Positions 58,297-64,000 of a stretch of 64,000 nt of DNA are shown here, one piece after another. The notes beneath the pieces were generated by a model. That model was given only the letters and a program-made list of their open reading frames with translations, had not been told where the DNA came from and ran no database searches. Source of the DNA: Bryobacterales bacterium (GTDB lineage: Bacteria; Acidobacteriota; Terriglobia; Bryobacterales; UBA6623). The stretch is from contig CBDDCH010000002.1 of assembly GCA_965226215.1 (NCBI GenBank), positions 1,495,180 to 1,559,179 of the forward strand, written 5' to 3'. Within the stretch, counting starts at the first letter, position 1. Every line of letters begins with the position of its first letter. The translations under genes and the position numbers were made by a program.

Positions 58297-59676
58297 CTAG
58301 TTGTTTTTGGCGGTTGCCGCTGCTGGAACCCGGAGCACTCGCAACTCCCCGCCTTCCGGATAGGCGAAGAACTCCGTTCCCAGAAACTGGATCTGAATGT
58401 GGCCCTGCCGGCGCTTCAAGTTCTTGCGGAATACCTCCCGGCGATCGGACACCCTAAAAACGTAGACGGCGTCGGGCGCCACATCGTGTCCGCAATAGGT
58501 GCATGAGACGCTCACCGCGATCAAGCGCCCCTCGGGTTCGACGGCGACGGAATGGATTTTCCGTCCCCGTAAAACCCTGTGACGCCCCGATTCACCGCGC
58601 ATAGTCCAGACGATAGCGTCCGAACCTTCTTCGTCGGACTGGCCCCAGGCAAGCCAACCGTCGGCGACTCGTCGAAACTGACGGTCGAACACCATAGCGC
58701 CGGGCGGAGTGATGGGTCCCCAGCGGAGATGGCCCTCGAGATCCAGGCCCAGAAGGTCGGAGACGCCTCTCTGCAGCACGATCTCCGGCTGATCCACGTC
58801 GAAGCTCAGCAAGCGGTAAGAGGAGCGGGTCTCGTCCAAAGGTTCGAAATCTACCGTGATCTGGTCGTCGGTTCCCAGGGACCGTATGAAAACCCTCGTT
58901 AAGGGTGGGTCCCTTTCGCTGTCGGGAAACTCGAGCCGGCCTATCCACTTTCCATCATCTGAGAGGACCGGCGGGTTGCGGTCAGGCTGCGGTGGCCAGG
59001 CCAGAGGACGCAGCTCGCTTCCGGGACCGGGCCAATACCACCACGACTCGCGCCAGTCCGGCCGACTCTTCGTAACGTAAAGCATGCGGCCGTTCTCGGC
59101 AGCGTAGGCGATGTGCGGGTACTCGCCGATTTCGAAGCTCACTTCGGTGATTTCGCACCCGGGCGTTTCGAGGAGGGCATACTCCTCTCCGCCCCGCCGG
59201 CGAAGCCAAGCCTGTCCCGCTTTCTCGAGCGACATGTCCAGGGGCCGCTCCGCGGGTGAGATTTGGTAACCAGACAAGGTGCAATCCGTTACCCACTCAG
59301 CTTGTTCCCCGGCACTCTCGGCTTCGATGGGAAAAGGGGGAGGAAACCGTCCTCCGTGCGCTAGGTTCAACGTCATGACAAAAACCGGGACGGAGGCCAC
59401 CAAGGACACGATGGGTGGCCAGCCCGGTCGGCGAATGAGCCAGTACAACAGCAGCGCGGCCCCAGCCTGTAGGACCAGCGCAAGGGTTAGGTCCCCGGCG
59501 AGCCAACCGATTCCGAGAGGGTACTTATCGATCTCCCCCAGCAACAGCAGTCCCCACGGACGATGGCTGAAGTGTCTCCCGAATACGGGGAGGAGATAAG
59601 TGGCGAATGACCCCACGAAACCGATCGCGTATGCTGCTGCCTTTCCGCTGATCGCCGGCTTCGGTTTCGTCGTCAT
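58297..59676 (-). CDS. Hypothetical membrane protein: three N-terminal TMs plus a probable beta-propeller
   Basis: Hydrophobic N-terminus; TolB-like strings PVLSDDGKWIG and SVAVEPEGRLIAV. Confidence 0.6.
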   Translation of the reverse strand: MTTKPKPAISGKAAAYAIGFVGSFATYLLPVFGRHFSHRPWGLLLLGEIDKYPLGIGWLAGDLTLALVLQAGAALLLYWLIRRPGWPPIVSLVASVPVFVMTLNLAHGGRFPPPFPIEAESAGEQAEWVTDCTLSGYQISPAERPLDMSLEKAGQAWLRRRGGEEYALLETPGCEITEVSFEIGEYPHIAYAAENGRMLYVTKSRPDWRESWWYWPGPGSELRPLAWPPQPDRNPPVLSDDGKWIGRLEFPDSERDPPLTRVFIRSLGTDDQITVDFEPLDETRSSYRLLSFDVDQPEIVLQRGVSDLLGLDLEGHLRWGPITPPGAMVFDRQFRRVADGWLAWGQSDEEGSDAIVWTMRGESGRHRVLRGRKIHSVAVEPEGRLIAVSVSCTYCGHDVAPDAVYVFRVSDRREVFRKNLKRRQGHIQIQFLGTEFFAYPEGGELRVLRVPAAATAKNN

Positions 59677-60121: not shown

Positions 60122-61441
60122 CTACAGCCAACCGCAGAAACCGCCATCCAGGCACATGTGTACCTGCAGGTCTTCGGGCTTGTGGGATCTTGACCACTCC
60201 AGGCCGTTGACCGACAGGCCGGTGGCCCAAGCCTCGCTGTCAAGGGTGGATGGGGCGACTACCGAGACCGATTGGGCGCCTTCGAGTGCCAGGCCCGTGC
60301 GCGGGTCGAGCAAGTGGCTGTAGCGCCTGCCGTTGGCCTCGAAAAACTTCTCGTACGACCCTGAAGTCGAAAGAGATTGGTCTTCAAGGTGGACCTCCGC
60401 GGCCCTTGAATCGGCATCGTCCGGATCACGGATTCTCACATACCAGCCGCGCGGCTCGCTTGGCGGAGATCCCATCCCGTAGAAGCTACTGCTGCAGGCG
60501 TTGACAAGAGCTACCTGGACGCCGGCCTCGCGGAGGACTTTAACCATACGATCAACGGCGTAGCCCTTGCCGATTCCGCCGGGGTCCAGCCGGACACCCG
60601 GCCGGCGAAAGTACACCGTCTGTTGCCCCTCATCCACAACCAGGTGACGATAGCCGACGTCGAGGAGCGTTCCGCGGATCGCTTGCCGTCTGGGAACGCG
60701 ACCGGCACCCTCGGCAAATCCCCAAAGGGCCATCAAAGGGCCTACGGTAATGTCGAAGCCCCCGTCCGTTAAGCGGCTGTACTCACGACAGCGGACCAGT
60801 AAGGCCGCCATCTCTGCGGACAGCTTTTTAGGCGCTGAAGGCGATAGGCGATTGAGGCGGCTCAACTCACTGTCCGGCTTGTAATGGCTCAGCCAACGGT
60901 CGATGCGATCCACTTCTTCAAAGGCAGCCTGGACGGCGGAGGCGAGGTGGCGGCGCTGGTCTCCGTAGGCGGTGACCGTATAGGTACACCCCATGGCTGA
61001 CGTGCTGGCTTCGTAGCGCTCTTGGAGTGAGCCGCCGCTGATCCCGCCACTCGCCGCGCATAACAGTGCCACCACGACCAGCGAGGTGGTCGAAGAGCGG
61101 GCGCGCTTTCGAATGCGTTCCAGCAGCGTCTCCACTCGCTCGGCGCTTTTCTGTCCCCGGTCTTCTACGAACTGCAACTCCGGCGTGTGTCGCAGCTCCA
61201 TTCTTTGTGCCAGTCTATAGCGAAAATAGCCGCGCGCCCGGTGAAGCGCACGCAAAATTTCTTTGGCGGGTGGACTATCAGAACGAAGATGAAAGAACAC
61301 CTGGGCGCGTTGTAGATCAGAGGAGACGTTGACTCGAGTCACCGAGACCGGGGCCAGACGGGGGTCGCCGGACTGGACAACGATATCTCTGATCTCGCGG
61401 CCCAACTGTTCCGCGATTTTCGCGACGCGGGTCGTCTTCAT
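60122..61441 (-). CDS. rbfA: In-frame fusion of ribosome-binding factor A and FAD:protein FMN transferase (RbfA-ApbE)
   Basis: Residues 1-115 are RbfA (RVAKIAEQL..DPRL..VTRVNVSSDL.RA.V..LRHTPELQFVED). Linker SLVVVALLCAAS. Then ApbE (MGCTY, LSHYKPDSELSRLN, GGFDITVGPL, LDPGGIGKGYAVD, STSGSYE, HLLDPRTG). There is no stop codon between them. Confidence 0.88.
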   Translation of the reverse strand: MKTTRVAKIAEQLGREIRDIVVQSGDPRLAPVSVTRVNVSSDLQRAQVFFHLRSDSPPAKEILRALHRARGYFRYRLAQRMELRHTPELQFVEDRGQKSAERVETLLERIRKRARSSTTSLVVVALLCAASGGISGGSLQERYEASTSAMGCTYTVTAYGDQRRHLASAVQAAFEEVDRIDRWLSHYKPDSELSRLNRLSPSAPKKLSAEMAALLVRCREYSRLTDGGFDITVGPLMALWGFAEGAGRVPRRQAIRGTLLDVGYRHLVVDEGQQTVYFRRPGVRLDPGGIGKGYAVDRMVKVLREAGVQVALVNACSSSFYGMGSPPSEPRGWYVRIRDPDDADSRAAEVHLEDQSLSTSGSYEKFFEANGRRYSHLLDPRTGLALEGAQSVSVVAPSTLDSEAWATGLSVNGLEWSRSHKPEDLQVHMCLDGGFCGWL

Positions 61442-61641
61442 CGTTCTAAGCCGCCGTCCTCAATTGCCCGTTGCGTGACAGGAGCGAGACGTCGCTCGGC
61501 CTAGGTGGCCCTCCAGCTTCGATCCGACCACACCCTGACACCGGCTCCAATAAACCCCAAGCCGAAGGCCACTCCGGCGACCACGAACAAAACGCTCTAG
61601 GCTTGTCTGAAGGCAAGAAGGAAGTGCCTGCTCGCAGCACT

Positions 61642-61665
61642 CCTGCCAGGATTGCAGGCCGCTAC
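61642..61665 (-). repeat. GTAG-type REP
   Basis: CCTGCCAGGATTGCAGGCCGCTAC, similar to 35796. Confidence 0.55.
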
Positions 61666-61709
61666 AACGGATGAGGCTCGCCGTCACATCTGGCCAATTT
61701 GTCTTCTTC

Positions 61710-62000
61710 TTAGCCTGACAGAAACTCGATCTCGGATGAAGTTAAGTCCGAACCAAGCTGGTGTGCGGCCTCCTGCTCGACACGTTCAAGCACTTCCTGG
61801 GTGTGAGCTTCTGTCTCCGAGATCGTGACAATGCCCACGACCGAGCGCTGCCACTTCTCTTGAAATTCGATTTCAGCCACTGAAACGTTCGACCGATGGC
61901 GAAGGCGGTCTTTGAGGGCTCGGAGAACTTTACGTTTGTCCTTGAGGCAGTGCGCGTGGGGAATATGGAGATGTAGTGTGAGCAGTCCGACGGCCGCCAT
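61710..62000 (-). CDS. DUF503 (YlxP) family protein
   Basis: VGLLTLHLHIP..LKDKRKVL..NVSVAE..WQR; canonical position between infB and rbfA. Confidence 0.92.
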   Translation of the reverse strand: MAAVGLLTLHLHIPHAHCLKDKRKVLRALKDRLRHRSNVSVAEIEFQEKWQRSVVGIVTISETEAHTQEVLERVEQEAAHQLGSDLTSSEIEFLSG

Positions 62001-62009
62001 GGGAACTCA

Positions 62010-64000
62010 TCAGACGAGCACTTTTTGCGCCACCTTCTCGGTGACGAAAGCCTCGACAATGTCACCTTGTTTGACGTCGTTAAATCCCTCCAGGCCAATG
62101 CCGCATTCCTGTCCGGAACGGACTTCTTTGGCATCGTCCTTGAACCGGCGCAACGACGAAACACGGCCCGTGTAAACCACCACGTTGTCGCGCAGCAATC
62201 TTACGTCGCTGTCGCGACTGACGCGCCCATCCTGCACAACACAGCCGGCAACTGTTCCGACCGTGCTAACCCGAAACAGCTCGAGCACCTCGGCACGGCC
62301 CAGGTAGGTTTCCTTGATGACCGGCTCGAGCAGGCCCAGCATCGCCTGCTTGATCTCATCCAGAAGTTCATAAATGACAGTATGGAGCCGGATGTCAATC
62401 TTTTCGCGTTCTGCCAAGGCCGCGGCCGTGCGCTCCGGTCGAACGCTGAAGCCCACAATGACACTGCGTGACGCGGAGGCGAGGAGCACATCCGACTCGG
62501 AGATGGCGCCAACGCCCGCATGCACGATCCGGACGGTGACCTTTTCGGTGGAGAGTTTCCGGACACTGTCGACAAGGACTTCCACCGAGCCTTGCACGTC
62601 GGCTTTCAACAGCAGTGAAAGCTCCTTGACGTCTCCCGCTTTCAGCCGCTCCTGGAACTGGTCAAGAGACAAACGCGCCGTCTTCGCGAGAGCCTGCTCA
62701 CGGACCTTGTTTTCGCGGTACTCGACAACCTTTTTAGCCTTTTCAGTGTCGGTGACTACTTGCAGAGTGTCGCCCACTTCGGGGAGTCCTTCGAGGCCCA
62801 GAACCAATACGGCGGAGGAGGGCGGGGCTTGCTTGATCTTCGCGCCGCGGTCGTTGATCAAGGCGCGCACCTTCCCGAAGACCGCACCAATGAGAAAATA
62901 GTCACCGACGCTGAGTGTCCCGTTCTGAATAAGCACGGTGGCGACTGGTCCCTGGCCGCGATCGAGTTTGGACTCCAGCACTGTGCCTTCAGCGGGGCGC
63001 GCGGGGTTAGCCTTCGGCTCCTTCAGGTCGGTTACCAGCAGGACCATCTCAAGGAGCGTATCGAGGTTCTCTTTCGTCTTGGCCGAGACGGGTACGACCA
63101 CGGTTTCCCCCCCCCACTCTTCGGGGAGCAGACCGCGATCCGCCAACTGCTGCTTGACGCGCTCGGGGTCCGCGTCGGCCTTGTCGATCTTGTTGACGGC
63201 AACCAGAATAGGTACATCAGCCGCTTTGGCGTGGTCAATCGCTTCGATGGTCTGGGGCATAATGCCATCATCAGCGGAGACCACCAAAACGACAAGGTCA
63301 GTCACCCGAGCACCTCTCGCTCGCATACGGGTGAAGGCTTCGTGACCTGGCGTGTCAAGGAAAACAATGTGGCGCCCGTTCTTCTCCACGTGATAGGCGC
63401 CAATAGCCTGTGTGATGCCCCCAGCTTCCCGGTCGGCGACATTGGTGTCGCGGATAGAGTCCAGTAGGGAGGTTTTCCCGTGGTCGACGTGGCCCATCAC
63501 GGTTACCACCGGCGGGCGGGTCTGGAGATCTTCGGGTACCTCCGTCTGTTCCACGAGCTGGGCCGCTTCTTCCTCAAAGCTGACCTCCGTGGCGGTAGCT
63601 CCGAAATATTTACAGAGGTTCTTGATGGTGTCTAGGTCCAGTGTTTGGTTAATGGTGGCAAAGACGCCTCGATCAACCAACCTCTTGATAACGAGGTTAG
63701 CCTTGATGCCGAGCCTTTCGCCAAGTTCTTTGACGGTCGTTCCGTCGCTGACCGTGACCTCGGTATGGAGGGCCTGAGGCGGGGCGGCAGCCACTTTGGC
63801 GGCTGCCTGGCGGCGCAAGATCTTTTCCTCGCGTGCAGCTTCGGGGTCACGAACGCGTCGGGCGCCGATCGGTCTGGGACCGCGGTACTGACCCGGGCCG
63901 CGAGGCGGCCCTCCCGCGGGGACGAAGCCCGGTCGGCCAGTGGGGTGGAACGTCCGGGGACGAATTTGAGGTGCGGCGAAAGACCGAGGCGTGGGCAAAC
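62010..64000 (-). CDS. infB: Translation initiation factor IF-2 (5'-partial; starts beyond the window)
   Basis: RPPVVTVMGHVDHGKTSLLD, GGITQ, DTPGHEAF, NKID, KADVQGS and ECGIG. Confidence 0.99.
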   Translation of the reverse strand, partial: LPTPRSFAAPQIRPRTFHPTGRPGFVPAGGPPRGPGQYRGPRPIGARRVRDPEAAREEKILRRQAAAKVAAAPPQALHTEVTVSDGTTVKELGERLGIKANLVIKRLVDRGVFATINQTLDLDTIKNLCKYFGATATEVSFEEEAAQLVEQTEVPEDLQTRPPVVTVMGHVDHGKTSLLDSIRDTNVADREAGGITQAIGAYHVEKNGRHIVFLDTPGHEAFTRMRARGARVTDLVVLVVSADDGIMPQTIEAIDHAKAADVPILVAVNKIDKADADPERVKQQLADRGLLPEEWGGETVVVPVSAKTKENLDTLLEMVLLVTDLKEPKANPARPAEGTVLESKLDRGQGPVATVLIQNGTLSVGDYFLIGAVFGKVRALINDRGAKIKQAPPSSAVLVLGLEGLPEVGDTLQVVTDTEKAKKVVEYRENKVREQALAKTARLSLDQFQERLKAGDVKELSLLLKADVQGSVEVLVDSVRKLSTEKVTVRIVHAGVGAISESDVLLASASRSVIVGFSVRPERTAAALAEREKIDIRLHTVIYELLDEIKQAMLGLLEPVIKETYLGRAEVLELFRVSTVGTVAGCVVQDGRVSRDSDVRLLRDNVVVYTGRVSSLRRFKDDAKEVRSGQECGIGLEGFNDVKQGDIVEAFVTEKVAQKVLV

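Follow-up and report, generated by a model that had tools for sequence, protein, structure and literature searches.

A conserved in-frame fusion of the ribosome-assembly factor RbfA to an ApbE flavin transferase through a signal-peptide-like linker in Bryobacterales

RbfA, a ribosome-assembly factor, and ApbE, a flavin transferase, are encoded as a single protein in a 64,000-nucleotide stretch of DNA from a Bryobacterales bacterium (NCBI GenBank assembly GCA_965226215.1, contig CBDDCH010000002.1, positions 1,495,180 to 1,559,179 of the forward strand), referred to here in its entirety as the window. RbfA is near-universal in bacteria and acts as a freely diffusing late assembly factor of the 30S subunit. 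ApbE/Ftp, the flavin adenine dinucleotide (FAD):protein flavin mononucleotide (FMN) transferase, is an extracytosolic flavinylation enzyme (Meheust et al. 2021, PMC8238504). The fusion that joins the two, rbfA::apbE, is real, conserved, old and undescribed: our literature search found no paper joining RbfA to ApbE, save one unrelated pangenome list. Sequence comparisons lead us to read it as an ancient, fixed fusion whose product would be one chain with RbfA in the cytoplasm and ApbE exported, with probable cleavage by signal peptidase I (probability about 0.6).

RbfA and ApbE share one open reading frame

The fused open reading frame (ORF) occupies positions 60122–61441 of the minus strand and encodes 439 amino acids (aa). 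It begins with an ATG at 61441, ends with a stop codon at 60122–60124, contains no internal stops, and has full-length orthologues of 84–93% identity in six congeners. Pfam matches RBFA (PF02033) at aa 5–107 with an E-value of 2.9e-24 (85.8 bits against a cut-off of 34.7) and ApbE (PF02424) at aa 150–416 with an E-value of 3.9e-73 (246.7 bits against 25.6); the rbfA equivalog TIGR00082 scores 87 bits against a cut-off of 51.15. The RbfA domain spans aa 1–114 (61100–61441, minus strand), and after it the frame runs on through 325 further codons without a stop. The sequence around the junction is ERVETLLERIRKRARSSTTSLVVVALLCAASGGISGGSLQERYEAS, which can be divided into the segments ERVETLLERIRKRARSSTT-SLVVVALLCAA-SGGISGGSLQ-ERYEAS. 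A basic patch at the end of the last RbfA helix (R109-I-R-K-R-A-R115; 61097–61117) leads into a hydrophobic core that forms a Kyte–Doolittle peak (aa 120–130; 61052–61084). The next ten residues (aa 131–140; 61022–61051) are rich in small side chains and comprise a candidate cleavage region and linker. The ApbE/Ftp domain follows (aa 141–439; 60125–61021) and opens with the conserved strand ERYEAS..MG. All of these segments lie on the minus strand.

The original prediction, which was made from the letters of the window, placed a 439-aa frame in the infB-DUF503-rbfA position and described a basic RbfA tail that passes, uninterrupted by any stop, into an LVVVALLCAAS stretch and then a complete ApbE domain. 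The ORF list and Pfam confirm the frame and its position, and the junction reads exactly as stated.

The fusion is conserved in two families of Bryobacterales

All 120 of the best 120 matches to the fused protein among 5.8 billion proteins are orthologues, and at least 105 of them, with identities of 44–93%, carry both PF02033 and PF02424. The fused clusters derive from independent assemblies held by NCBI, ENA, JGI and Logan. A survey of the order with PF02033 covered 151 genomes and distinguished the family of the window (f1), a second family with the fusion (f3) and a family without it (f2). In f1 and f3, the RBFA match lies inside frames of 436–535 aa (one of 783 aa) in every genome with a match except G012; the RBFA-bearing frames of f2 measure 118–242 aa. 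The in-frame junction is present in about 60 of the surveyed genomes and in most genera of f1 and f3, two related soil-dwelling families of Acidobacteria. The fused copy is the sole RBFA match in the genome of the window, and the same holds for every fused genome surveyed, except two that contain the whole locus twice. These two, G014 (C1:629676 and C3:1010257) and G142 (C5:1169128 and C5:1860871), show identical scores for both copies, which reflects either a large duplication or assembly redundancy.

The architecture has a narrow distribution. When 1.84 billion proteins were clustered at 50% identity, the best 150 clusters included four full-length fusions, all belonging to this family, and no independent fusion from elsewhere. 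Genomes from other orders of the class have rbfA at a great distance from their best apbE match. The RbfA–ApbE architecture is thus a single, lineage-restricted family. A search for the architecture and its orthologues, as the original prediction had suggested, yields more than 100 clusters with both domains and orthologues across f1 and f3. None of the six congeners has a stop or frameshift between the domains followed by a separate apbE start: the junction is uninterrupted in 6/6. The suggestion that the frame might consist of overlapping in-frame genes, or result from the accidental loss of a stop codon, does not survive this conservation in six congeners and two families, nor the several orthologues that lack any ATG, GTG or TTG codon from the last RbfA helix to the hydrophobic core.

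Two loci depart from an intact frame. The closest relative, at 93% identity (L007; G004:C6:3737995-3739300), is represented by two overlapping pieces that meet near residue 350; the break probably reflects an indel error from long-read assembly and not a pseudogene. In G012 (L028; G012:C1:6729799-6731315), rbfA and apbE occupy different frames with about 280 nucleotides (nt) between them, involving a frame change and an insert. Three congeners of G012 are fused, and its split is either secondary or an assembly error.

Both halves are ordinary members of their families

To describe the two domains, we used an AlphaFold model built from a 75-sequence alignment (mean predicted local distance difference test score, pLDDT, 88.7). 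The RbfA half adopts a KH-like alpha-beta-beta-alpha-alpha-beta fold (helix 2–23, strands 32–39 and 45–52, helices 59–68 and 70–80, strand 88–93) with pLDDT values near 90, followed by a C-terminal helix at aa 95–114. The residues A69-R70-G71 fall at the break between helices 59–68 and 70–80, where the family consensus is A-x-G-F-L-R. A type II KH-like fold with an A-x-G helix-kink-helix is the defining feature of RbfA, as established by the nuclear magnetic resonance structure of the E. coli protein. RbfA entries in the PDB match with E-values from 1.8e-13 (8BXA) to 5.9e-07.

Within the genus, the ratio of nonsynonymous to synonymous substitution rates (dN/dS) is 0.17 for RbfA codons 1–112, 0.16 for ApbE codons 147–439, and 0.48 for the intervening tail and linker (aa 113–146). 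When pairs of equal infB divergence are compared, fused RbfA sequences share 43% identity and unfused ones 44%. The dN/dS of 0.17 and these matched identities give no sign that selection on RbfA was relaxed, or that the domain is decaying, after fusion; purifying selection acts equally on both halves.

The model also contains a complete ApbE fold. The E. coli ApbE structures 2O18 and 4XGW match at E-values of about 1e-41 with their motifs aligned, and the motifs GGIGKGYA, STSGSY and HLLDPRTG (H..DPRTG) are present in columns that are invariant across 75 homologues. The E. coli-type equivalog NF007774 scores 164.9 bits against a cut-off of 498, which places the ApbE half, as judged by sequence, in the same family and outside the E. 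coli orthologue group. By sequence and fold, each half is an ordinary family member. A distinctive element is found at the C-terminus, where the motif Cys430...Cys436-x-Trp438 (aa 430–438; 60134–60154, minus strand) lies in a β-hairpin with strands at 426–430 and 436–438. Cys430 and Cys436 are invariant columns in the orthogroup and Trp438 is conserved in at least 90% of sequences; the motif, in the general form Cys-x5-6-Cys-x-Trp, occurs in fused, split or separate, and RbfA-less orthologues. In the aligned E. coli ApbE chain (2O18/4XGW), no cysteine stands opposite Cys430, and the alignment stops before Cys436. In the modeled hairpin, Cys430 and Cys436 may form a disulfide, which would fit an extracytoplasmic location.

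The linker has the geometry of a Sec signal peptide

We evaluated the linker as a signal peptide, with its basic (n), hydrophobic (h) and cleavage (c) regions, using charge and hydrophobicity statistics over 108 fused homologues. The 12 residues preceding the hydrophobic core are positively charged in 108/108, with net values from +2 to +9. The core has a median length of 12 aa (interquartile range 10–13) and reaches at least 18 aa in 6% of homologues, while the uncharged stretch is no longer than 15 residues in 30%. AlphaFold predicts an 11-residue helix at aa 120–130 between the two confident domains; its flanks are low-confidence coil, and aa 131–140 have pLDDT values below 60 and no secondary structure. 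Many homologues have small residues at positions −3 and −1 of potential cleavage sites, such as LRA/E, ARA/D, GLG/Q and AFA/A, and sites such as the first three lie 5–10 aa before the conserved ERYEAS strand. The window offers several weak candidates within CAASGGISGG. Typical junctions read KKRTP-LIVLLLLCSGLRA/ELVRYEAS, KRKQ-LAVLLLLGCLHGRA/ELLRYEAS and KKSKSG-LAVVALACLAGFG/QAQ. The linker occupies the same place as the N-terminal signal peptide of standalone orthologues. Here the signal is not N-terminal: 118 residues of folded RbfA precede it and no conserved internal start separates them. Taken together, the predicted geometry is that of a cleavable Sec signal peptide rather than a membrane anchor.

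The proposed double role of the basic RbfA tail, as the end of the domain and as the n-region of this signal, agrees with the comparison to unfused relatives, which end in stretches of the RRIKRGRPR type; in the fusion, that stretch directly precedes the core. A lipobox in this segment is not supported. Against the pattern [LVI][ASTVI][GAS]C, the window sequence ALLC128 is non-canonical, and Cys128 is unconserved even within the genus, being replaced by glycine in congeners L004 and L006. In most homologues it is absent or shifted, and no linker cysteine is found among the invariant columns. The twin-arginine (Tat) pattern S/T-R-R-x-F-L-K is likewise missing as a conserved element, with no conserved RR-x-F-L in n-regions such as RIRKRAR, RLRKKSK, RIKKRTP and RISKGKG. 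Neither a lipoprotein signal nor a Tat signal is conserved among the homologues, and both were rejected. In one f3 member (L029 in G032:C129, and the corresponding protein P0072), an Ala/Pro-rich, low-complexity insert of about 50 aa lies between the hydrophobic core and ApbE, from which it follows that the spacing after the signal is flexible.

The fusion appears to have arisen from translationally coupled genes

The unfused family f2 retains arrangements that are best taken, on sequence grounds, as precursor states. There, rbfA and apbE are separate and translationally coupled genes. The genes of G037 and G040 overlap, with rbfA ending and apbE beginning inside a shared ATGA. In G039 they abut: the rbfA TAA is followed at once, and in frame, by ATG-AAA-CAT..., whose product MKHFVLLLLVAPAMLLA/AEP... 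is an ordinary signal peptide. The unfused form of RbfA terminates in ...RRIKRGRPR plus a short acidic tail. In the fusion, the acidic tail, the stop, the start and the first ApbE residues are missing, and the basic RbfA helix abuts the hydrophobic core. These states outline the route to the fusion: in an ancestor of the two Bryobacterales families, the stop and start codons between a translationally coupled rbfA and apbE would have disappeared, together with the short acidic end of RbfA. In a maximum likelihood tree of infB, DUF503 and ApbE rooted on f2, f3 (all of whose members are fused) and f1 form one clade with support 100, so a single fusion event suffices.

Ten f1 genomes of genera g2, g6 and g11 give no RBFA match, even with TIGR00082 at E-values up to 10. 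They comprise L022 (G016), L023 (G011), L024 (G020) and L025 (G007) together with G093, G102, G105, G108, G110 and G112. This set takes in a third g6 genome and five more g11 genomes, several of the assemblies are single contigs, and closed genomes are among them. At the four loci L022–L025, infB and DUF503 are followed directly by an apbE gene with its own start and N-terminal signal peptide, and these loci form one clade (support 98) in the infB, DUF503 and ApbE tree. The pattern indicates that one subclade of f1 later deleted the RbfA part and kept ApbE. A seeming exception to the one-loss pattern, G119 (L101 and L104), has both a g3-like fused copy and a standalone apbE of its own genus; its assembly is larger than those of its congeners and is probably a mixed metagenome-assembled genome (MAG). 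G059 and G125 lack the whole locus, likely through assembly gaps.

Genomic context of rbfA::apbE

The fused gene closes a run of three genes on the same strand. This run is headed by infB, which encodes IF-2 (62010–63998, minus strand; Pfam IF-2, GTP_EFTU and IF2_N), and continues with the upstream operon partner DUF503 (61710–62000, minus strand; PF04456, E-value 1.7e-26). The infB frame begins about 2 bases from the end of the window, and its true N-terminus may lie beyond it. The gene order of this run recurs in 30 relatives; counted as infB-DUF503-rbfA, it is present in 26. In this genome only, a 268-nt spacer (61442–61709) separates the DUF503 stop from the rbfA start; other congeners have a few bases at the same place, as seen in the upstream sequences of L002–L006. 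The spacer occurs once in the genome and has no Rfam match. Searches for structured RNA, promoters and terminators gave nothing above chance at the junction or in the spacer.

Downstream of the fusion there is no conserved gene, even within the genus. A 459-aa ORF at 58297–59676 (minus strand), which has hydrophobic N-terminal segments and no Pfam match, is found in some congeners only (L003) and stands outside any conserved unit. No FMN_bind substrate gene lies near rbfA::apbE; the only two FMN_bind genes of the genome are at least 230 kb away. The two other ApbE paralogues of the genome (G000:C2:1261497-1262719 and G000:C2:4719677-4725625) are each located beside or within about 5 kb of an FMN_bind gene, which is likely the substrate of that paralogue. 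A functional link through neighboring genes was considered and set aside, as the downstream genes differ within the genus and no FMN_bind gene is nearby. The original prediction had also proposed that the fusion links ribosome maturation to the extracytoplasmic redox state. This idea finds no backing in the locus, which has no nearby flavinylation substrate or conserved gene, nor in the subclade that kept ApbE and dropped RbfA.

Discussion

The conservation, selection and linker statistics described above suggest the following course of events. The product would be made as one chain, whose RbfA domain (aa 1–114) folds in the cytoplasm. The emerging core (aa 120–130) would then engage Sec, the positive RbfA tail would be held inside (N-in, C-out), and ApbE would be threaded to the periplasm. 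We infer this topology from the positive-inside rule and the exported orthologues. Signal peptidase I would most probably cut after the core, given its signal-peptide length of about 12 residues and the small residues that follow, and release a soluble, periplasmic ApbE. RbfA would stay behind at the cytoplasmic side of the membrane, still bearing a short hydrophobic tail, which might be clipped by signal-peptide-clearing proteases or simply tolerated. In E. coli, the protease RseP is reported to clear signal peptides out of the membrane and to act in the stepwise cleavage of FecR, a type II protein (PMC8144685). Both the cleavage and the later fate of RbfA are predictions from the linker. Nothing indicates that the two activities cooperate, and the most fitting view is that close packing of the operon produced a fusion that was tolerated and later became frozen.

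Several points weigh against this proposal. The c-region of the window, SGGISGG, lacks a textbook A-x-A site. The roughly 6% of homologues with cores of at least 18 aa could be true membrane anchors. Processing by signal peptidase I after a folded 118-aa domain is unusual in bacteria, with Bradyrhizobium FbcH (cytochrome b/c1) as one precedent. The existence of one subclade without RbfA could be a sign that the fused RbfA had by then lost most of its value.

Both membrane-related options of the original prediction, a membrane-spanning tether and a polyprotein cut by signal peptidase, survive our analysis, and the short core favors the latter. As an uncleaved, bitopic protein, the fusion would use a type II signal anchor to tether RbfA to the cytoplasmic face of the inner membrane and ApbE to its outer face, and the transmembrane anchor would replace the lipid anchor of many ApbE/Ftp proteins. 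Membrane-held ApbE is a normal state, since the E. coli and Treponema pallidum ApbE/Ftp proteins are membrane-anchored lipoproteins. The positive-inside rule is obeyed in all 108 homologues, the absence of a clear A-x-A site in the window fits this arrangement, and a minority of homologues have uncharged stretches of 20–28 aa and cores of up to 21 aa. However, the median core of 12 aa and the 11-residue AlphaFold helix are short, and the uncharged stretches of no more than 15 aa seen in 30% of homologues, such as TPLIVLLLLCSGL between two arginines, are too short for a stable span. The linker also evolves fast, like a signal peptide (dN/dS 0.48), and standalone orthologues use the homologous segment as their N-terminal signal peptide. 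We regard an uncleaved tether as possible yet clearly the less probable arrangement for the family, and as plausible where the core is long, which is so in a minority of homologues. A more elaborate version of the cleaved form, in which the fusion is a maturation device, appears improbable. RbfA would in that case be born bound to the membrane at the Sec translocon and reach the pre-30S particle only after cuts first by signal peptidase I and then by an intramembrane or signal-peptide protease of the RseP/SppA type. If so, the supply of active RbfA, and with it late 30S maturation, would be gated by secretion capacity and the state of the envelope. This would amount to regulated intramembrane proteolysis of a ribosome-assembly factor, a need that the RbfA-less subclade would have bypassed.

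The remaining alternatives question whether the fusion is the real or only product. One holds that ApbE is translated alone from an internal start, with the fusion apparent or minor. We scanned 17 orthologous loci for all in-frame ATG, GTG and TTG codons and their Shine–Dalgarno (SD) pairing. The window contains GTG at Val103 (61133–61135, minus strand; SD duplex energy −1.8 kcal/mol), TTG at Leu89 within the RbfA domain, and GTG at Val122 and Val123 within the hydrophobic core. Because the others lie inside the RbfA domain or the core, Val103 is the sole start that would spare the whole signal peptide. The GTG at 61135 was originally described as the only internal start, with a weak ribosome-binding site; it exists and its SD pairing is weak, but it is not the sole ATG, GTG or TTG. 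The codon is a GTG in the window and in L004, L006, L009 and L016, which is what an internal start would call for. At congeners L002, L003 and L005, however, the Val103 position is not a start codon. In these three loci, as well as in L010 and L012, the stretch from the last RbfA helix to the core is free of ATG, GTG and TTG, and L010 and L012 lack any candidate from the RbfA domain to the core. SD-like pairing is weak throughout (−1.8 to −2.6 kcal/mol), and ribosomes that start at rbfA meet no stop, so the fusion would be made regardless. With no start conserved in the 17 loci, and several loci without any, we rejected internal initiation, which is very unlikely. We also considered recoding, such as a programmed frameshift that yields free RbfA beside the fusion, since AAA and AAG codons cluster at the Lys/Arg-rich junction. 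We found no support for it: the 11 loci examined contain no slippery heptamer (X XXY YYZ), and the first out-of-frame stop is distant and variable, at 28–163 codons in the −1 frame and 3–73 in the +1 frame. A programmed frameshift, which would have neither a slippery heptamer nor a conserved out-of-frame stop, was rejected as even less credible. With no conserved start and no recoding signal, ApbE must be made within the fusion. Finally, the frame might stem from an error in sequencing or assembly, or from a recent read-through of the pseudogene type limited to this genome. The genome is a MAG in two contigs, perhaps from a long-read assembly, and the congener G004 has an apparent frameshift later in the same gene. 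The same junction nonetheless recurs in about 60 of the surveyed genomes and in more than 100 clusters whose source projects and platforms are independent, and both halves are under purifying selection. For the family, an artefact is refuted; it is the remotest of these explanations, with a negligible chance of being correct.

The family is instructive in several respects. This lineage has long possessed no RbfA other than one that is joined to a secretion signal and, through it, to an exported enzyme; one of its daughter lineages has none. The family thus offers a natural experiment on the C-terminal cargo or membrane tethering that RbfA tolerates, and on whether Sec and signal peptidase I can handle a signal peptide placed behind a folded 118-aa domain. 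It likewise bears on how translationally coupled neighbors fuse and become fixed, and on what replaces a lost RbfA. Pipelines that look for N-terminal signal peptides would class this ApbE as cytoplasmic, and the current annotation, which names the protein either RbfA or thiamine biosynthesis lipoprotein, hides one half of it in each case.

Comparison with known systems

The RbfA half resembles canonical RbfA (E. coli P15B/RbfA, from the nusA-infB-rbfA-truB operon) in its family scores, KH-like fold, A-x-G kink, position downstream of infB, and basic C-terminal helix. Canonical RbfA, however, is a free cytoplasmic protein of 105–140 aa that binds the pre-30S particle, whereas here no stop follows the domain, which continues into a hydrophobic segment and a 300-aa enzyme that is predicted to be exported, and the genome has no free copy. 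The ApbE half shares its domain, motifs and presumed export with ApbE/Ftp proteins (E. coli ApbE, PDB 2O18/4XGV; Treponema pallidum Ftp). Its sister-lineage orthologues have ordinary N-terminal signal peptides, whereas the export signal here is internal, 118 residues into the chain, is not a lipobox, and is encoded without an FMN_bind neighbor.

In overall layout, the fusion recalls the type II bitopic regulators RseA and FecR, which successive proteolytic cuts set free (PMC8144685 for FecR and RseP): a cytoplasmic N-terminal domain of about 100 aa, one hydrophobic segment, and a periplasmic C-terminal domain. Site-1 cleavage of RseA and FecR is regulated, and their membrane helices are of full length; the fusion shows no evident regulatory logic, and the likeness is an analogy only. 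A literature search for a precedent among polyproteins with an internal signal peptide, of the FbcH kind, found nothing usable. The nearest parallel in logic is FbcH of Bradyrhizobium japonicum, the cytochrome b-c1 precursor, a polyprotein that is split at an internal signal peptide. Like the fusion, it consists of one frame with an upstream part in or at the membrane, an internal signal peptide, and a downstream part that is exported and, in FbcH, freed by signal peptidase. The two halves of FbcH end up in one complex, whereas those of RbfA–ApbE have unrelated functions, with a soluble ribosome-assembly factor as the upstream half and a processing step that is predicted from the linker.

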